Source: an uncultured Clostridia bacterium (lineage in GTDB: Bacteria > Acidobacteriota > Aminicenantia > UBA2199). From it: DNA of 64,000 nucleotides. Below the pieces are notes generated by a model that made no database searches, had not been told where the DNA came from, and was given only the letters and a program-made list of their open reading frames with translations. Position 1 is the stretch's first letter, and the number at the start of each line of letters is the position of its first letter. The translations under genes and the position numbers were made by a program. Shown in pieces: positions 32,335-63,972 of this stretch. Location of the stretch: positions 78,012 through 142,011 of the forward strand of contig CAYWEM010000001.1 of NCBI GenBank assembly GCA_964457225.1, read 5' to 3'.

Positions 32335-32416
32335 CCGCTCCCCCGCCGCTAAAATCCACCACCTAATTTCTGCAATTGTTCTGAAGAGCAATATAAGGGT
32401 TGAGTTTTACCTGAGT

Positions 32417-32594
32417 GAAAGGGTGAATCAACGCTCACCACTACGGTGCAGACCGACGTTAAGCCAGGCTGTACTAACATGACCAACTCGCTTCGCTCAG
32501 ACAGTGGTCATGTTACCCTGAAGGGCACGTCCAGCCTGGCTTTGTCGGTTCCCTGCACCTTCGTTTGACGTTCGCTTTTGCTTCACCCTTTCCC
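32417..32594 (-). repeat. Copy A1 of the ~177-nt structured palindromic element (inverted relative to copies A3/A4)
   Basis: Reverse complement is 99% identical to 48783-48959. Lies intergenic between ntrC-like and hslV. Confidence 0.85.
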
Positions 32595-32673
32595 TTGCCC
32601 CATATTTTTTGGTGGGGAATCATGGGCCGGACGTTCATTTGACTAGCCCGGGCAAAAGGAATAAAATCAAGCC

Positions 32674-41687: not shown

Positions 41688-43688
41688 ATGTCCGTCAAAC
41701 GCAAGATCCTGGTAACCGCCGCCCTGCCCTACGCCAACGGTGACATCCACCTCGGCCACCTGGTGGAATACCTGCAGACCGATTTCTGGGTGCGCTTCCA
41801 GAAAATGCGCGGCCACGAATGCCTCTACATCTGCGCCGACGACACCCACGGCACCCCGGTCATGGTCAGCGCCCGGGCCCGCGGAATCAGTCCCGAAGAG
41901 CTCATCGCCGAAAAGAATCTCGACCACCGGCGCGATTTCGCCGCTTTTGAAATCGAGTTCGACAACTATTACAGCACTCACAGCCCGGAAAACCAGGCCC
42001 TGGCCGAGGAATTCTTCGCCGCCATGCAGCGCGACGGCCACATCGCAGTCAGGCCGGTCAAGCAGTTTTTCTGCTCCCGGGACCGGATGTTCCTGCCCGA
42101 CCGCTTCGTAACCGGGACCTGCCCCCGCTGCCGGGCCGAGGGCCAGTACGGAGATTCCTGCGACAAGTGCGGGGCTGCCTATTCCCCGGCCGAGCTGGAG
42201 AGCCCGGCCTGTTCGATCTGCGGCACTGTCCCGGTGGAGCGCGAGAGTGATCATCTCTTTTTCCGCCTGGAAAACTTCCGCGCCTTCCTGCAGGAATGGG
42301 TCAGCCTGCACACCCCGCGCGAGGTGGCCAACAAGCTCGGAGAGTGGTTCGGCGAGGAACTGCGCGACTGGGATATCTCCCGCGACGCCCCCTATTTCGG
42401 CATCCCGATTCCCGGCTATCCGGACAAGTTTTTCTACGTCTGGCTGGATGCCCCGCTGGGCTATATCTCGTCCACCATGGACTGGGCCCGGCGCAGTCAG
42501 CGCGATTTCCGCGAATTCTGGCATTCCGGGGAAGCCGAGCTCTACCATTTCATCGGCAAGGACATCGTCTACTTTCACACCCTGTTCTGGCCGGCCATGC
42601 TGAAAGCGGCCGGGTATAAGACCCCTGACCAGGTTTTCGTGCACGGTTTTCTGACCATCAACGGCGAGAAGATGAGCAAGTCCAAGGGCACCTTCATCAA
42701 GGCCGCCACCTATCTTGAACAGCTCGACCCGCTTTACCTCCGTTACTATTACGCCTGCAAGCTCGGCGCCAACCTCGACGACATCGACCTCAACCTGCAG
42801 GACTTCGTCAACAAGGTAAATGCCGAGCTGATCGGCAAGATCTCCAACCTGGCCTCGCGCAGTCTGCAGATGGTCGACCGCGCCGGCGGCGTGCTGGGCC
42901 GCCTGACCCCGGCCGGCCGGGAACTGCTGGCGGCCTCGGGGGAAAAAGCCGGCCAGGTGGCCGAGCTCTACGAGAAACGGGAATTCTCCAAGGCCCTGGT
43001 CGAGATCCGCGGCCTGGCCGAGGCGGCCAACCGCTATTTCGACGAACAGAAGCCCTGGGAAAAGATCAAGGCCGACCCGGAACAGGGCCTGGCCGTGCTG
43101 ACCGACGTCATCAACCTCTTCCGCCGGCTGGTGATCATGCTCAAGCCCATTCTGCCCTCCTGGGCCGGCCTGGTGGAAGAAATACTGCGCGAAAAGCCCT
43201 ACACCTGGGATTCACTCGGAGAAGAGCTTGAATCCGTCCCGGTCGGTCCCTTCAGGATGCTGGCCGCCAGGATAGAAAAGGAGAAAGTCAACATGATAAT
43301 CGAGCAAAGCCAGGAAAAACCGGCCGAACAACAACCGGCCGTGGAACACGAAGCCCTCTGCCCGACCGTCTCCTTCGCTGATTTCCAGAAAATCGACCTG
43401 CGGGTAGCCCGGGTGCTGGAAGCGGAGATCATCCCCGAGGCCGACAAACTGCTTCGCCTGAAAGTGGACATCGGCCTGGAGACCCGCTCGATCATCGCCG
43501 GCATCAGGCAGGCCTACAAAGCGGAAGACCTGGTCGGCAAACTCATCGTAGTGGCGGCCAACCTGGAGCCGCGGAAGATGAAGTTCGGCCTCTCCGAAGG
43601 CATGCTGCTGGCCGCCGGCCCCGGCGGAGCCGAGGTCTTCGTGCTGAGCCCGGACAGCGGCGCCCGGCCCGGCCAGCGCATCCATTAA
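41688..43688 (+). CDS. metG: Methionine--tRNA ligase with C-terminal EMAP-like tRNA-binding domain
   Basis: HIGH motif ALPYANGDIHLGHL. KMSKS motif. Zn knuckle CPRCRAEGQYGDSCDKCG. C-terminal FQKIDLRVARVLEAE. Confidence 0.9.
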   Translation: MSVKRKILVTAALPYANGDIHLGHLVEYLQTDFWVRFQKMRGHECLYICADDTHGTPVMVSARARGISPEELIAEKNLDHRRDFAAFEIEFDNYYSTHSPENQALAEEFFAAMQRDGHIAVRPVKQFFCSRDRMFLPDRFVTGTCPRCRAEGQYGDSCDKCGAAYSPAELESPACSICGTVPVERESDHLFFRLENFRAFLQEWVSLHTPREVANKLGEWFGEELRDWDISRDAPYFGIPIPGYPDKFFYVWLDAPLGYISSTMDWARRSQRDFREFWHSGEAELYHFIGKDIVYFHTLFWPAMLKAAGYKTPDQVFVHGFLTINGEKMSKSKGTFIKAATYLEQLDPLYLRYYYACKLGANLDDIDLNLQDFVNKVNAELIGKISNLASRSLQMVDRAGGVLGRLTPAGRELLAASGEKAGQVAELYEKREFSKALVEIRGLAEAANRYFDEQKPWEKIKADPEQGLAVLTDVINLFRRLVIMLKPILPSWAGLVEEILREKPYTWDSLGEELESVPVGPFRMLAARIEKEKVNMIIEQSQEKPAEQQPAVEHEALCPTVSFADFQKIDLRVARVLEAEIIPEADKLLRLKVDIGLETRSIIAGIRQAYKAEDLVGKLIVVAANLEPRKMKFGLSEGMLLAAGPGGAEVFVLSPDSGARPGQRIH

Positions 43689-43692
43689 CAGC

Positions 43693-43882
43693 CATCGGTG
43701 CCGTATCTTGCATTATCACATTTTCAACCGACCATAGCGGCGGATTTACTGTCCCAGGGGCCATCGGTGCCGTATCTTGCATTATCACATTTTCAAGCGA
43801 CCATAGCGGCGGATTTACTGTCCCAAGGGTAAACGAGGGTTGCCGCGGGGCCCGGTCCTTCAGAAAATACATATCTTCAAGC
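43693..43882 (+). repeat. Repeat B, copies B1a (partial, 43693-43758) and B1b (full, 43762-43882) in tandem immediately after the metG stop
   Basis: gccatcggtgccgtatcttgcattatcacattttcaa(g/c)cgaccatagcggcggatttactgtccca occurs twice head-to-tail. The second copy extends ...agggtaaacgagggttgccgcggggcccggtccttcagaaaatacatatcttcaa. Confidence 0.85.
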
Positions 43883-43967
43883 ACCCTCCCCCGCCCAACC
43901 CCCTGGCTTTTCTTTTTTTTCTGGTTTTTGTAATAATCATAACCAGCAGAGTCAAAAAAAGGAGGTT

Positions 43968-45428: not shown

Positions 45429-45567
45429 ATCAGCAATTTTACCGCCGGCCAGGGCCCAGATTCCCGTTTCCGGCATTAAGACCGGTGGCCAACCGGTTCA
45501 GCTCTGCCGGATAAGGTTTTTTTCAAGTCTCGGCCATCACCCTGGTTCCATACCTGTTTTTATGCCA

Positions 45568-45698
45568 GGGGAAGGGTGAAGCAAAAGCGAACGCTCCCCC
45601 TTCGGGGACAAGAAACGAAGGTGCAGGGAACCGACAAAGATGGGCTGGACGTGCCCATCAGGGTAACATGACCACTGTCTGAGCGAAGCGAGTTGGTC
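45568..45698 (+). repeat. Copy A2: left arm + loop of the palindromic element only, truncated at the junction with repeat B2
   Basis: Matches positions 1-~125 of copy A3, with the small hairpin ctcccccttcggggacaag replacing tcaa. Ends ...agttggtca, then repeat B begins. Confidence 0.8.
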
Positions 45699-45704
45699 AA
45701 GGGG

Positions 45705-45824
45705 CCATCGGTGCCGTATCTTGCATTATCACATTTTCAAGCGACCATAGCGGCGGATTTACTGTCCCAAGGGTAAACGAGGGTTGCCGCGGGGCCCGGT
45801 CCTTCAGAAAATACATATCTTCAA
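45705..45824 (+). repeat. Repeat B copy B2 (direct orientation relative to B1b)
   Basis: Near-identical to 43762-43882 over ~120 nt. Confidence 0.85.
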
Positions 45825-45844
45825 ACTCTGTCCCCTCCCACACA

Positions 45845-46558
45845 CTAAAAATCAGGCGGGGAATCAGGGCTCACTCCCAGTAACTGCTCGAAGCTGAGGT
45901 CCATCAGGGGGTAATCTTCCCAGCCGTGGAAATCGAAATGCCACCACTCGGTGGGATAATGGGAAAAGCCGTGCCGGGCCATGATATCGAACAGCAATTG
46001 CCGGTTCCGGATGACTTCTTCCGGCAAATCGGCGTATTCCGGGTGAGCCCGTTCAGTGAATTCGTCGTAATCGGTGGGCATGGGAATTTCCAGGCCGCTG
46101 TCCAGGTTTACCAGGGTGACATCCACAGCACAGCCGCGGTTATGCCGGGAACCGTAGCGCGGATCGGCCACGAAATCGGGGTCCGGGTAAACTTCGTAGA
46201 ACCTTACCGTGGCCGCGTAGGGGCGATAGGCATCGTAAATCTTCAGGCCCAGGTTCAGCTCAGCCAGCTCGGTCTGTACTCTCTGCAGGGCCGCGGCCAC
46301 CGGCCGCCGGGCGAAGGCCTTCGGCGATGTATAGATTATTTCCCCGGTGAAATTGTCGGGCCCGGCATAGCGGATATCGAGCACGATTCCGGGAATGACG
46401 GCCTCCAGGTCGACCAGTTCCAGATCGGGGTTTGCGGCCGCCTGGGCCCGGTACAGGGAGAGATCGCTGAGCACCTGGAGCCCGGGGCGGCCGGAGTAGG
46501 CCGGCAGCAGCAGGATCAGGGCGGCAGTAACCAGGTAAAGACAGGCTTTCTTCTTCAT
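45845..46558 (-). CDS. D-Ala-D-Ala dipeptidase (VanX/DdpX, peptidase M15D), secreted
   Basis: Signal peptide. Zn-binding SRHNRGCAVDVTL and EWWHFD motifs. Confidence 0.7.
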   Translation of the reverse strand: MKKKACLYLVTAALILLLPAYSGRPGLQVLSDLSLYRAQAAANPDLELVDLEAVIPGIVLDIRYAGPDNFTGEIIYTSPKAFARRPVAAALQRVQTELAELNLGLKIYDAYRPYAATVRFYEVYPDPDFVADPRYGSRHNRGCAVDVTLVNLDSGLEIPMPTDYDEFTERAHPEYADLPEEVIRNRQLLFDIMARHGFSHYPTEWWHFDFHGWEDYPLMDLSFEQLLGVSPDSPPDF

Positions 46559-48333: not shown

Positions 48334-48711
48334 TTACATGTCCTTGACCCGGCGCTCGAAGAGTTGCCGGTAGAGGGAAACGGCCAGGGCGCCGAACAGG
48401 ACGATCAGGTACAGGAATCTATGGCTGAGCGGATCGACCGGCCATGCCCCCGACCAGGCCCCGAATTCAACCAGGAACACGGCGAAAATCGTGGCCGTGC
48501 TGATGTAAAATACCCTGAGCCTGAGGCAATTCGTATCTATCAGCACGGTGGCGGCGCTCCAGGAGACGGCGGCGCTGGCTGAAAGCAGGGCGTTCAAGAG
48601 GTTGCTTTTCAGCCCGTTGGCCCTGAAAACCAGCAAATAGAGGGCCAGGCAAACCAGGCCGAGCAAAACCGGTAAAAAGGCTGTTTTTCTCATCTGAACC
48701 AGAGCAATCAT
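48334..48711 (-). CDS. Small membrane protein (hypothetical)
   Basis: Three to four TM segments. Start moved to MIALVQM (RBS GGAAGGAAAG), because the ORF-track 5' extension runs into repeat copy A3. Confidence 0.4.
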   Translation of the reverse strand: MIALVQMRKTAFLPVLLGLVCLALYLLVFRANGLKSNLLNALLSASAAVSWSAATVLIDTNCLRLRVFYISTATIFAVFLVEFGAWSGAWPVDPLSHRFLYLIVLFGALAVSLYRQLFERRVKDM

Positions 48712-48782
48712 ATTCTTTCCTTCCGGGCAAGTCAATATGCACCACGGCACCTCTGATTCCCCGTTTAAATCTTTGAAAAAGG

Positions 48783-48959
48783 GAAAGGGTGAAGCAAAAG
48801 CGAACGTCAAACGAAGGTGCAGGGAACCGACAAAGCCAGGCTGGACGTGCCCTTCAGGGTAACATGACCACTGTCTGAGCGAAGCGAGTTGGTCATGTTA
48901 GTACAGCCTGGCTTTACGTCGGTCTGCACCGTAGTGGTGAGCGTTGATTCACCCTTTCC
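48783..48959 (+). repeat. Copy A3 of the ~177-nt structured palindromic element (reference copy)
   Basis: Terminal inverted repeats gaaagggtgaa / ttcaccctttc. Internal complementary segments aacatgacca/tggtcatgtt, agccaggct/agcctggct, ggtgcag/ctgcacc, accgac/gtcggt. Confidence 0.85.
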
Positions 48960-49123
48960 TTCAGGTAATACACACACCCAATAATGCTCTTAATAACAAT
49001 TACAGAAATCAGCTAGGGAATCCTGACGGCGGCGGGCCGTCTTGACAAGGTAGTTATTTCTATAATATAGAATTAAAGTAATCGTTTAAGTCACCTTAAC
49101 CGAAATCCATCCGGAGGTGTGTC

Positions 49124-50530: not shown

Positions 50531-50866
50531 ATGCCGGCGGTAAAAACATCAATCGATCAGGAAGCTCGATTGATTATAAAAAATGTTCTGGAAAGCCAAG
50601 GCTTCGTCAACTCAAGAATAGTTCTTTTCGGATCAAGGGCCGACGGCACCGCCCGGATTGAAAGCGATTGGGATTACCTGGTGCTCATTTCCAAACCGAT
50701 TACCGTCTCTCAGAAACGCCTCCTTATCCGGCAGATCAAGCGAAAACTGGCCAGGAATTATATCCCCAATGACATCATCCTGCAAACCCGCGAAGAATTT
50801 GAACAGAAAAAGAACACTCCTGGAACAATCAGCCGCAATCTCACATTGGATGGATTTGTCTTGTGA
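50531..50866 (+). CDS. Nucleotidyltransferase (MNT-type) antitoxin
   Basis: hG[GS] and DxD motifs: LFGSRADGTARIESDWDYLV. 4-bp overlap with the downstream HEPN gene. AT-rich. Confidence 0.7.
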   Translation: MPAVKTSIDQEARLIIKNVLESQGFVNSRIVLFGSRADGTARIESDWDYLVLISKPITVSQKRLLIRQIKRKLARNYIPNDIILQTREEFEQKKNTPGTISRNLTLDGFVL

Positions 50867-51252
50867 ACGATTGGGCACATAAATGGATCAAGAAAGCTCG
50901 GAATGACCTTAAAACCGGATTAGATCAACTGGCCACCCTTGATCCCGCCACTGACACCATCTGTTTTCACATGCAGCAATGTGTTGAAAAGTACCTGAAA
51001 GCTTTCCTGGTGGAAAGAAAGCAGGATTTTCGAAAAACTCATGATATCGCCGAATTAATTGAGCTTTGCAAGCTGAAAGATCCCTCTTTTGAGGAATTAT
51101 ACGATCTGAATGTCGACTCCCTGACTCAATACGGCATTGATGTCCGTTATCCCGATGATTTTTATATGCCGACTATTGAAGAAACAAGAAAAGCAGTTGA
51201 AATAACCGAGAAAGCAATTTCTTTCATCTCAACACGTATCGACCAGGACTGA
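50863..51252 (+). CDS. HEPN-domain toxin
   Basis: R-x4-HD motif (FRKTHDIAELIE) in an all-helical ~130-aa protein. Paired with MNT. Confidence 0.7.
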   Translation: MNDWAHKWIKKARNDLKTGLDQLATLDPATDTICFHMQQCVEKYLKAFLVERKQDFRKTHDIAELIELCKLKDPSFEELYDLNVDSLTQYGIDVRYPDDFYMPTIEETRKAVEITEKAISFISTRIDQD

Positions 51253-55201: not shown

Positions 55202-55302
55202 GCAACCTCCCCGGTCCGGCCGACGCCGGGACCGGCCTTACAATTAGCACGGCGACCTCCCCCTGTCAACCGCGGGCCTGATCATATCTGATCATTGGGC
55301 CA

Positions 55303-55479
55303 GGGAAAGGGTGAAGTAAAAGCGAACGGAAACGAAGGTGCAGGGAACCGACAAAGCCGGGCTGGACGTGCCCTTCAGGGTAACATGACCACTGTCTGAG
55401 CGCAGCGAGTTGGTCATGTTAGTACAGCCTGGCTTTACGTCGGTCTGCACCGTTGTGGTGAGCGTTGATTCACCCTTTC
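55303..55479 (+). repeat. Copy A4 of the ~177-nt structured palindromic element
   Basis: 97% identical to A3 (5 substitutions). Lies intergenic between the divergent galM and GH97 genes. Confidence 0.85.
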
Positions 55480-55642
55480 ACACTCAGGAAAGACAATAAT
55501 CTTAGCAGTGTATTTCAAACAATTCCGGCAATCAGGTAGTGTGTTTGGGGGGTCACCGGCACTGGACAGCGGGATCTTCCCTGTTATATCATTGCACCTG
55601 CCGATGAAAACCGAAATCAAGCGATTCCCGCGGAGAATAACC

Positions 55643-57625
55643 ATGAAAAAAACGAGCTCCTGCCTGGCCCTGCTCTTAACCTGCCTGGCCCCCCTGGCCG
55701 CGGCCAAGACTTTCAGCTCGCCCGACGGCCGCCTGGCCGTCCAGGCGCACCGCAACACCGGGCAGGGGCTGACCGTGTTTTTCGACGGCAAGGAGGCTCT
55801 GGAAATAGGCGGAATGGACCTGGTTTTCCAGGGCGGGCGGGCCGAGCCCGGCGGCCGGCCGCTGGCCCTGCGGAGCAACCGCCTGCGCCGCGAAACCATC
55901 CGGCCCGAAATCCCCCTGCGTCGTTCGCTGATCGAGAGCCGCTTCCGCGAGCTGGTATTCAGCGCCGGACCCGGACTTGAATTACAGCTGCGCCTTTACG
56001 ACCGGGCCCTGGCCTACCGCTTCAGGCTGACCGGCCCCGGCTCCCGCGGGGTTGAGGCCGAGCTGGTCGAATTCCGGCCGGCCGGCGATCCGACCCTTTA
56101 CTTTCCCGAGGAAAAAAGCCTGCAGTCGCATTACGAGGGCCATTACCGGGTACTGCCCCTCAGCGGACTGGAAGAAGGGCGGCTGGCCCACCTGCCCCTG
56201 CTGGCCAGGACCGATTCCGGGCTCAACCTGCTCTTCAGCGAAGCCGATGTCCACGATTACCCCTGCCTGTTCCTGCGCCGCTCGGCCGCCGGCCTGGCCG
56301 GCCTGTTTCCGCGCATCGTCAGCAGGACAGCGCCCCGGGAGCGCGGCCCGGACCGCAATGAAAGCATAGTGGAGGAAGAAGAACTCATCGCCCGGGTCAG
56401 CGGCCCCCGCCCCCTGCCCTGGCGCCTGGTCATGGTCAGCGACGACGACCGTGACCTGCTGGGGCCCGAGCTGGTTTACGAGCTTTCCAGGCCGGCCGCG
56501 CCCGGCACGGACTGGTCCTGGGTGCGGCCCGGCAAAGTGGCCTGGGACTGGTGGAACGCCAACAACCTGTTCGGCGTGCCTTTCCGGTCCGGGCTGAACA
56601 CCGAAACTTACCGGGCCTACATCGATTTCGCGGCCGACTTCGGCCTGGAATACGTCATCCTGGACGAGGGCTGGTCAAAATCAACCCTCGAGGTGCTTGA
56701 TTTCAACCCGGACATCGATGTGCCCAAACTGCTCGCTTACGCGAAAAACCGCGGGGTGGGCATCATTCTCTGGCTGCTCTGGAAACCCCTGGACAACGAC
56801 CTGGAAAACATCCTGGATCAATACGCCGCCTGGGGAGCCAAGGGGATCAAGGTGGACTTCATGCAGCGGGCCGACCAGTACATGGTCAATTTTTACGAGC
56901 GGGTGGCCCGGGCCGCGGCGGCCAGGCGACTGCTGGTAAATTTCCACGGTTCCTTCAAGCCGACCGGCCTGCACCGGGCTTATCCCAACGTGCTCAGTTA
57001 CGAGGGCGTTCGCGGCCTGGAGCATGCCAAGTGGTCCGACCTGGTCACTCCCGGTCACAACCTGCTGCTGCCCTTCATCCGCATGAGCGCCGGGCCGATG
57101 GATTACACCCCGGGAGCCATGGAAAACGCCGGACCGGGTGAATTCAAGGCCCGTTTCAACCGGCCGATGAGCCAGGGCACCAGGGCCCAGCAGCTGGCCC
57201 TGTACGTGGCTTACGAAAGCCTGCTCCAGATGCTCTGCGATTCGCCTTCCCGCTACCGCCTGGAGGAAGAATGCGCCCGGTTCATGGCCCGCATCCCGGT
57301 CAGCTGGGATGAAACCCTGGTCCTGGAAGCCCGGGTCGGAGAATACCTGGTGCTGGCCCGCCGCCGGGGCGACAGCTGGTACCTGGCGGCCCTGACCGAC
57401 TGGACGGCCCGGGAGTTTGAAGTCGAGCTCTCCTTCCTGCCGGCCGGCCGCTTCAGGCTGGAAAACCTGGCCGACGGGATCAACGCCGACCGCCACGCCC
57501 ATGATCATCGCTTCGAAGAAAGCCGGGTTGAAAAAAGCACCCGCCTGGCCCTGAAACTTGCTCCCGGGGGCGGCTGGCTGGGCATCATCAGCCCGGCCGC
57601 CGAAGCGGAATCGGATCTGAAATGA
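55643..57625 (+). CDS. Glycoside hydrolase family 97-like secreted glycosidase
   Basis: Signal peptide MKKTSSCLALLLTCLAPLAAA. TIM-barrel segment EYVILDEGWS, GIKVDFM, NFHGSFKP, typical of GH97. The ORF-track 5' extension was rejected (ATG 55643 with RBS). Confidence 0.6.
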   Translation: MKKTSSCLALLLTCLAPLAAAKTFSSPDGRLAVQAHRNTGQGLTVFFDGKEALEIGGMDLVFQGGRAEPGGRPLALRSNRLRRETIRPEIPLRRSLIESRFRELVFSAGPGLELQLRLYDRALAYRFRLTGPGSRGVEAELVEFRPAGDPTLYFPEEKSLQSHYEGHYRVLPLSGLEEGRLAHLPLLARTDSGLNLLFSEADVHDYPCLFLRRSAAGLAGLFPRIVSRTAPRERGPDRNESIVEEEELIARVSGPRPLPWRLVMVSDDDRDLLGPELVYELSRPAAPGTDWSWVRPGKVAWDWWNANNLFGVPFRSGLNTETYRAYIDFAADFGLEYVILDEGWSKSTLEVLDFNPDIDVPKLLAYAKNRGVGIILWLLWKPLDNDLENILDQYAAWGAKGIKVDFMQRADQYMVNFYERVARAAAARRLLVNFHGSFKPTGLHRAYPNVLSYEGVRGLEHAKWSDLVTPGHNLLLPFIRMSAGPMDYTPGAMENAGPGEFKARFNRPMSQGTRAQQLALYVAYESLLQMLCDSPSRYRLEEECARFMARIPVSWDETLVLEARVGEYLVLARRRGDSWYLAALTDWTAREFEVELSFLPAGRFRLENLADGINADRHAHDHRFEESRVEKSTRLALKLAPGGGWLGIISPAAEAESDLK

Positions 57626-63320: not shown

Positions 63321-63465
63321 GTGACTATTATGAAGTAATATTCATAATTGTCAAGACTATTATGAAGTTTGCTTCACTTTGGTCAACACGAGATGCAACT
63401 CAAGTCTTGCCGGGTCGCACCCGGCCCTGGCCGGCCGGGTCCGGGTTTTCCCGGTCAAAGCCCCA

Positions 63466-63972
63466 TCAGCCGGGGTTGTTGCGGATGTATTCCCGCAGGT
63501 GTTTTAATTCCCGGTCATTTCGGATGACGTGTTCGTAATAATTGCGTTGCCATAATTTCGCACCGGGGGTTTGATTCAATTCATTGATGCGTTTGGTGAC
63601 GGCGGATTTAAATGATCGAACAATCGTTGGTACGGAACCGGAGACCGGTCGGCCGAATCGTTCCAACGTAGGGGCACGGCGCGCCGTGCCCCTACCATCG
63701 TTGACAATCAAAATACCATGAAAATGGTTGGGCATGACCACCCATTCGTCCAATTCAATTTCATTCCGCATTACGCCGGATTTTCTCCATTCGTCGGCGA
63801 CAATTATTCCGTCATCATTCAATACCATTTCCCCGCCAATGACATCACCGAATATGGATTCCCGGTTCCGGGTGCAAATGGTCAGGAAATACGCGCCAAC
63901 CCGCGAATAATCATATCCCTTCAGGCGGATGGAACGTCGCCTGTGTATTTCCGGGTCGAATTTCTTTGCCAT
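63466..63972 (-). mobile_element. REP-associated tyrosine transposase (RAYT; IS200/IS605-like Y1 HUH transposase)
   Basis: HUH motif MPNHFHGIL. Catalytic Tyr region KLWQRNYYEHVIRND. ~165-aa size. GC-rich nested palindromes (63408-63455) on its 3' flank. Confidence 0.75.

Follow-up and report, generated by a model that had tools for sequence, protein, structure and literature searches.

The DNA analysed here (the window, a 64-kb stretch from an uncultured bacterium) carries a highly structured palindromic sequence at 48783 that recurs elsewhere in it. The locus raises the question of what this repeat is: where the repeated unit begins and ends, whether it moves, and what could move it. The gene content of the window is that of ordinary chromosome, with metG, hslVU, an AcrB-type pump, glycosyltransferases, a GH97 glycosidase and a HEPN/nucleotidyltransferase pair. 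The closest named homologues are in Kapabacteria, Bacteroidales and Aminicenantes, and the contigs of relatives that were compared with it encode proteins with type IX secretion sorting domains. These findings suggest a bacterium of the FCB group.

A palindromic core at four loci

BLASTN of 48783-48959 against the window returned three full copies and one partial copy, the query included, a density of about one copy per 16 kb within these 64 kb:

48783-48959, plus strand: full core copy, the BLASTN query
32417-32592, minus strand: core copy, 99.4% identical to 48783-48959
55305-55479, plus strand: core copy, 96.6% identical to 48783-48959
45572-45699, plus strand: partial core copy, 83.6% identical, element positions 3-113 only

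Pairwise core identity among the three full copies was 95.5-99.4%. The core is an imperfect palindrome of ~177 nt bounded by perfect 11-nt inverted ends. When GAAAGGGTGAA was searched with zero mismatches, it gave exactly six matches in the window, namely both inverted ends of the three full copies; allowing one mismatch gave 14 matches compared to 2.0 expected. The core was predicted to fold into one long bulged hairpin on either strand, with RNA or DNA parameters, and all four energies were below those of every shuffled sequence:

RNA parameters, plus strand of the 177-nt core: -88.5 kcal/mol, z -8.4
RNA parameters, minus strand: -81.7 kcal/mol, z -7.6
DNA parameters, plus strand: -54.3 kcal/mol, z -10.6
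DNA parameters, minus strand: -48.8 kcal/mol, z -7.8

An earlier note on this DNA had described three full copies and one half copy, the full ones 97-99% identical and one of them inverted, with 11-nt inverted ends and a fold into a long bulged hairpin. These points are borne out by the BLASTN identities of 96.6-99.4%, the minus-strand copy at 32417, the perfect GAAAGGGTGAA ends and the fold scores (z about -8 to -11 relative to shuffles).

The two arms of the core, ~85 nt each, form 65 Watson-Crick pairs with no G-T or A-C oppositions, interrupted by eight transversion-type mismatches and several bulges; a 13-nt side hairpin is found in the 5' arm only. Neither arm contains a short REP unit with its own palindrome and tag, and the only GTAG, which lies in the 3' arm, has been lost by mutation in the 55305 copy. 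At the apex, three copies read GCGAAGC (e.g. 48879-48885) and the one at 55305 reads GCGCAGC (55400-55406), and this lone apex substitution among the copies falls on the free N position of GCGNAGC. GCGNAGC has been described as the motif of extraordinarily stable DNA mini-hairpins (PMC13037366). The fit of the apex to such a mini-hairpin is suggestive but is not proof.

The element encodes no protein, each of its reading frames being interrupted in at least some copies. When a translated reading frame of the element was searched against 5.8 billion proteins, no ORF product matched and no further copies were found. Rfam gave no match to the whole window at the family gathering thresholds and only a chance snoRNA match of 12 bits to the unit at E <= 10, in keeping with the earlier note, in which the repeat had not been recognised as any named RNA family. 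With 65 Watson-Crick pairs, no wobble and no Rfam match, the core looks like a DNA palindrome and not a structured RNA, and we infer that the hairpin acts as DNA.

The repeat unit and its empty sites

Repeat finding and alignment revealed that similarity between the copies extends ~30 nt 5' and ~70 nt 3' of the core, at much lower identity. The full unit is 277-279 nt (~278 nt) and consists of a 5' segment of 27-34 nt, a core of ~176 nt and a tail of 68-77 nt. The size of ~177 nt first given for the element is therefore correct for the palindromic core, as defined by the fold and the inverted ends, but not for the whole unit, which alignment and empty sites put at ~278 nt. The four units and their flanks are as follows:

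48749-49026, plus strand: full unit at 48783; 5' segment 48749-48782, core 48783-48958, tail 48959-49026; flanked by CGGC at 48745-48748 and 49027-49030
32349-32625, minus strand: full unit at 32417; tail 32349-32416, core 32417-32592, 5' segment 32593-32625; flanked by GCCG (CGGC in element orientation) at 32345-32348 and 32626-32629
55278-55556, plus strand: full unit at 55305; 5' segment 55278-55304, core 55305-55479, tail 55480-55556; flanked by GGGC at 55274-55277 and CGGC at 55557-55560
45535-45867, plus strand: chimeric unit at 45570; 5' segment 45535-45569, 5' half-core 45570-45699, D2b (a segment described below) 45700-45835, tail to ~45866; flanked by CGGC at 45531-45534 and GGGC at 45867-45870

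All four units have (C/G)GGC on both sides, as direct repeats in one orientation relative to the element. Copy number, exact termini and target preference are read here from four copies, a very small sample. These flanking repeats may represent a 3-4-bp target duplication, or they may result from insertion 3' of GGC by an element that itself ends in GGC; the data are compatible with both. The perfect 11-nt inverted repeats bound the core and not the mobile unit, whose true ends have no more than a loose inverted motif resembling CCTGATTCCCC, at differing offsets. In three of the four copies this motif, CCTGATTCCCC / GGGGAATCAGG, is present close to either end; it closes the outer stem in folds of the full unit, its sequence and its distance from the junction varying. 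The terminal bases differ from copy to copy, leaving the outermost ends ragged and poorly conserved. At the right-hand core junction there are 2-4 variable bases (CT, AC or ACAC), and imperfect CAGG / AAGG repeats flank the core together with these junction bases.

The boundaries of the unit were fixed by empty sites in relatives. The spacer between the sigma-54 activator gene and hslV is 339 nt in the window and 58 nt in two related contigs, L035 (SRR7802531; 84-88% nucleotide identity to the window) and L036 (ERR4067841; 93-96%). The extra 281 nt at the 32417 locus correspond to window positions 32345-32625, exactly the unit plus one CGGC. Likewise, the spacer between the convergent genes for a 485-aa protein and a dipeptidase is 416 nt in the window and 95 nt in L119 (ERR4067841), from which the whole unit at 45570 is absent. 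The empty sites carry a single motif, GGA in L036 and L035 and GGC in L119. Two of the four loci thus have empty sites, seen in contigs of two independent samples (SRR7802531, ERR4067841); the locus at 55305 was not comparable, its neighbouring genes having no close homologues on record.

With the whole unit missing from relatives at two loci out of four, the element moves or has moved, and the empty sites uphold the mobility that the earlier note had suspected. Absence in the relatives could in principle reflect precise loss instead of gain. Plain segmental duplication, named beforehand as the explanation that would overturn mobility, is ruled out, because no homology extends beyond the units among the four loci. 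We consider it probable that the repeat is a non-autonomous, non-coding mobile element that acts at the DNA level. It looks like a lineage-specific MITE/REPIN-like element.

Conservation is uneven along the unit. Identity among the three full copies is 95.5-99.4% in the core, 51-69% in the tail and 23-57% in the 5' segment. The window and the ERR4067841 relative without the element have diverged by 0.06-0.28 per four-fold degenerate site. The outer parts have diverged more than neutral sites have since the split, and so, if the insertions post-date the split, they did not diverge in place; the copies would then descend from sources that already differed in their outer parts while sharing a near-identical core. 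On the same condition, the alignments suggest that selection for mobility or gene conversion keeps the core constant throughout the family while the outer third drifts. The near-identity of the core, read from these comparisons, would be a mark of constraint or homogenisation and not only of youth. Recent mobilisation had been proposed on the strength of that near-identity. Movement itself is supported by the empty sites, but near-identity does not amount to youth, since the outer third is only 23-69% identical. In MITEs it is usually the ends that are conserved and the interior that varies; the invariant middle and drifting ends seen here are the reverse.

The copy at 45570 has a different anatomy. 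It was first reported as a half copy at 45568-45698, and BLASTN does detect only the 5' half of the core there, but the unit is not truncated: its 5' segment and a recognisable tail are present, and the 3' core arm has been replaced by D2b (45700-45835). Within the half-core, a 19-nt hairpin-forming stretch (45594-45612) stands in place of two bases and forms a small CCCC/GGGG hairpin with a CUUC loop in the internal-loop region. D2b is identical over 125 nt to D2a (43756-43891), 1.9 kb away:

43687-43891, plus strand: D2a, preceded by a partial tandem duplicate of 69 nt (43687-43755); native sequence that lies downstream of metG and served as donor of D2b

D2 is present as a single copy in L119 (2870-3012), at the orthologous place downstream of metG and with roughly 87-90% identity. 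D2 as an independent mobile element was rejected, given the orthologous position of D2a in L119, a fold test without signal and an Rfam search without match. Over its final ~45 nt, D2a is similar to the core's 3' end and the beginning of the tail, a similarity that may mark it as an old relic copy of the element. The chimera at 45570 would then have arisen by local recombination or gene conversion between the relic and the element.

The four insertions lie in divergent (48783 and 55305), tandem (32417) and convergent (45570) gene contexts, the three contexts that had been noted at the outset. The further statement that all copies are strictly intergenic is accurate for 48783, 32417 and 55305 but not for 45570, whose 3' end supplies the end of the D-Ala-D-Ala dipeptidase gene. 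Comparison of the window with L119 placed this insertion inside the last three codons of that gene (45845-45870). The last seven residues and the stop codon of the dipeptidase come from the element, and the protein ends in ...GVSPDSPPDF (237 aa) in the window compared to ...GLDEPA (233 aa) in L119.

Three units end 6-15 nt upstream of sigma-70-like -35 boxes (promoter-like sites at 32639-32667, 48707-48735, 49040-49070 and 55563-55592). The unit at 48783 lies 14-15 nt upstream of a -35 box on each side and nearly fills the space between two divergent promoter-like sites, and the unit at 55305 ends 6 nt upstream of the -35-like TGGACA of the GH97 gene, which starts at 55643. The promoter region of the aldo/keto reductase gene is conserved in the related contig L038 from window position 49037 on, and in L035 and L036 the promoter-like TTGACT...TAAAAT of hslV, immediately beyond the insertion, is conserved as well. 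Since these promoters are conserved in relatives, they are native and do not come from the element. Most simply, insertions would be tolerated only just upstream of -35 boxes or at gene ends. A role as a terminator was rejected, as no intrinsic-terminator signal is common to the copies and a match in one copy is at chance level. An integron attC site and CRISPR were also rejected, there being no array. At 50531-51252, 1.5 kb downstream of the unit at 48783, lies the nucleotidyltransferase (MNT-type) and HEPN gene pair, which is toxin-antitoxin-like.

Searches beyond the window gave no further copy. In GTDB representative genomes, the apical stem pattern AACATGACCA-N15-25-TGGTCATGTT matched 32 loci, all by chance, and BLAST and nhmmer with the element found no copy in these loci. 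The invariant apical 20-mer had no match in JGI metagenomes, a 22-mer and an inverted-end pattern had no matches each in viral contigs, and sensitive blastn found no match in plasmid and phage records. None of the 80 metagenome loci encoding GH97 relatives, all <=51% identical, contained the element. No copy was found in ~100 kb from more distant relatives, retrieved through homologues of the dipeptidase and the aldo/keto reductase, or in the ~1.1 Mb of retrieved loci in total, which include that ~100 kb. Within the reach of these searches, the family is restricted to the source lineage. The stem pattern did match near-identical 60-nt tandem repeats with a AACATGACCA...TGGTCATGTT hairpin (L009 1980-2230, L012 1820-2020 and the siblings L016, L018, L022, L026, L027 and L032, in MAGs labelled Saprospiraceae and Nitrospirales); these are unrelated to the element and were matched through the stem pattern only. 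One Logan contig from the window's own sample, L001, begins inside the 3' core arm (its position 1 is window 48931). The repeat thus breaks short-read assemblies, and further copies may be hidden in public data.

Candidate mobilising enzymes

If the element is mobile as proposed, ~278 nt of DNA encoding no protein would be mobilised in trans by an enzyme whose gene lies elsewhere in the genome. The 177-nt palindrome would be the cis-acting module that this enzyme recognises, probably as an extruded or single-stranded DNA hairpin nucleated at the GCGNAGC tip. Breakage and joining would take place ~30 nt 5' and ~70 nt 3' of the hairpin, at (C/G)GGC sites, which would leave an inserted copy bracketed by direct GGC and an unoccupied site with one. 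The enzyme could be the DDE transposase of an insertion sequence elsewhere, which would make the element a classical MITE, or a RAYT-like Y1 transposase, which would make it REPIN-like. The window contains one candidate for the latter:

63466-63972, minus strand: gene for a RAYT-like Y1 (HUH) transposase of 168 aa, the candidate trans-acting enzyme

The encoded protein has an HUH motif (HFH) and a conserved tyrosine region. It matches Pfam Y1_Tnp with E = 2.7e-7, and its sole match among solved structures is E. coli TnpA-REP (4ER8). The gene is single and lies 8 kb from the nearest element copy. No element similarity was found within 150 nt upstream (in L034) or 200 nt downstream of the gene, and no REP-like repeat common to its flanks and the rest of the window was found above chance. 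With flanks that lack the element, the locus does not have the defining genomic signature of a REPIN-RAYT system. Such a system would be expected to have tens to hundreds of extragenic copies per genome; the 64 kb covered here contain four. The RAYT transposase gene that had been read in this window is present as a RAYT-like Y1 gene, but its product scores 69.3 bits against NCBIfam REP_Tyr_transpos, below the cut-off of 80, and its flanks are free of the element. Inside the RAYT-like ORF, between the HUH and tyrosine motifs, is a perfect 28-nt palindrome, GTAGGGGCACGGCGCGCCGTGCCCCTAC (GTAG...CTAC), at 63668-63695, which encodes GRGTARRAPT and has no second occurrence in the window. Between a DUF4143/AAA_14 ATPase gene and the RAYT-like gene, at 63323-63386, there are two 32-nt direct repeats in tandem (GACTATTATGAAGT..., 75% identical).

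As a classical MITE, the element would be an internally deleted derivative of a DDE insertion sequence located elsewhere in the genome, recognised by way of its inverted ends and inserted with a 3-4-bp duplication of an NGGC target. Its size, lack of coding capacity and inverted-repeat architecture are consistent with such an origin, as are the short direct repeats at all four copies, the one motif at empty sites and, in three of the four copies, the inverted CCTGATTCCCC / GGGGAATCAGG-like motif close to either end. Harder to reconcile with DDE cutting are the varying terminal bases and the variable distance of the inverted motif from the junction or GGC, both atypical for such transposons. 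Conservation is also far higher in the interior than at the ends, contrary to most MITEs, the target has one orientation throughout, and no parent insertion sequence, that is none with matching ends, was found in the 64-kb window. We regard an origin of this kind as a reasonable possibility, short of an even chance. In the REPIN-like alternative, a RAYT-like Y1 (HUH) transposase would bind the hairpin in its folded, single-stranded form and cleave one strand 3' of GGC, much as IS200/IS605 and REP systems cleave beside hairpins. There would then be no true target duplication, the left GGC being the target and the right GGC the element's own end. This would account for the single direct orientation of GGC at all four copies, where a DDE enzyme acting at a non-palindromic target would be expected to give both; the same orientation at four of four copies nevertheless has a chance probability of ~1 in 8. 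Conservation centred on the hairpin and not on the termini, purely Watson-Crick stems with a GCGNAGC apex, and ragged ends, which fit a single-strand mechanism better, point the same way, as does the single RAYT-like gene 8 kb away with its HUH motif and TnpA-REP as its only structure match. If D2a is a relic, the family predates the split from the relative, which would fit published accounts of REPIN-RAYT systems persisting vertically over long times. Against this, neither the window nor L034 shows the element, or any recognisable part of it, next to the RAYT-like gene, whose product falls short of the family cut-off (69 bits compared to 80). Further, 177-278 nt far exceeds the described REPINs, and the arms differ from REP units, which carry a conserved GTAG or CGTC tag. 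Mobilisation by such an enzyme is possible, but we hold this reading with considerable doubt. More doubtful still is the specific proposal that the palindrome is the recognition module of a REPIN-like system outside Proteobacteria, in which a single-copy RAYT-like Y1 enzyme reads a very large, folded single-stranded hairpin, nucleated at its GCGNAGC tip, and cuts at GGC tens of nucleotides to either side. If the REPIN-like reading is true, selection would act on the hairpin only and leave the outer third free to drift, and the element would represent a new architecture for HUH-mobilised miniature elements.

Two other explanations were considered. A young 177-nt hairpin MITE might have inserted site-specifically into an older, diverse repeat of ~100 nt, given that the drop in identity coincides with the perfect inverted core ends, that 2-4 bases vary at the right junction, and that imperfect CAGG / AAGG repeats bracket the core and these variable bases. 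A nesting of this kind appears unlikely: no coreless outer element occurs in the window or the retrieved loci, both empty sites lack outer parts and core together, and D2a, which is older than the L119 split, already has the 3' end of the core contiguous with the tail. The repeat could also be a multicopy structured non-coding RNA gene or a cis-regulatory RNA, its core conserved for RNA function. The predicted RNA fold is very stable, the core is strongly conserved relative to its surroundings, two copies are directed at downstream genes, and the 19-nt CCCC/GGGG replacement hairpin at 45570 is a kind of variation often seen in structured RNAs. Set against these features are the lack of G-U among 65 stem pairs, the about equal folding of both strands, the Rfam searches (no match, only the chance snoRNA at E = 10 for the unit), the lack of a common promoter or terminator among the copies, the running of two copies into the 3' ends of convergent genes, and the coming and going of whole units among relatives. 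Together, these make an RNA gene very unlikely, and the reading that we favour is that of a non-autonomous mobile DNA element.

Relation to known miniature elements

Bacterial MITEs include Correia elements of Neisseria, ERIC/IRU of enterobacteria, RUP of pneumococcus and Nezha of cyanobacteria. These are non-coding elements of 100-300 nt whose inverted repeats form a long hairpin; they have short flanking direct repeats, lie near promoters and differ in presence between strains. Our element shares with them its size class, hairpin, direct repeats, promoter-adjacent intergenic sites and presence/absence differences, but it has no known sequence similarity to them. It is also flanked by GGC instead of TA, and it has poorly conserved termini with a nearly invariant interior.

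Miniature elements derived from IS200/IS605 (PATEs) move by single-strand 'peel and paste' and have two separate subterminal hairpins, at the left and right ends. Our element resembles them in having no precise terminal inverted repeats at the very ends, in its putative hairpin-centred recognition and, in one possible reading, in inserting 3' of a short motif that recurs at its 3' end in fixed orientation. In contrast to these elements, it has one 177-nt palindrome in place of two subterminal hairpins, and the window contains no IS200/IS605 TnpA or TnpB gene besides the RAYT-like gene.

REPINs are inverted REP doublets mobilised by RAYT transposases and have been described in Pseudomonas and E. 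coli (PMC3116915, PMC3337134). Like them, our element is a non-coding palindromic hairpin with near-identical, dispersed extragenic copies, a single-copy RAYT-like Y1 transposase gene is found in the same genome, and there are signs of long persistence of the family in the lineage. Unlike REPINs, the element is two to four times longer, its arms are devoid of short REP units tagged GTAG or CGTC, and its palindrome is extended by a 5' segment of ~30 nt and a 3' tail of ~70 nt. No copies flank the RAYT-like gene here, and the host is an uncultured bacterium, probably of the FCB group, and not a proteobacterium.

A miniature mobile element has thus been worked out in an uncultured lineage where none is known to have been described, and its boundaries were set by empty sites and not guessed from inverted repeats. 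Its uncommon trait is a middle far better conserved than its ends. The element matters for annotation and for strain comparison, as it breaks short-read assemblies, adjoins promoters and re-codes gene ends, as at the C-terminus of the dipeptidase. The invariant middle, the drifted ends and the fixed orientation of the flanking motif hint at an enzyme that reads a folded hairpin and cuts at a distance. If this is true, it would widen the known range of REPIN/IS200-type mobilisation.
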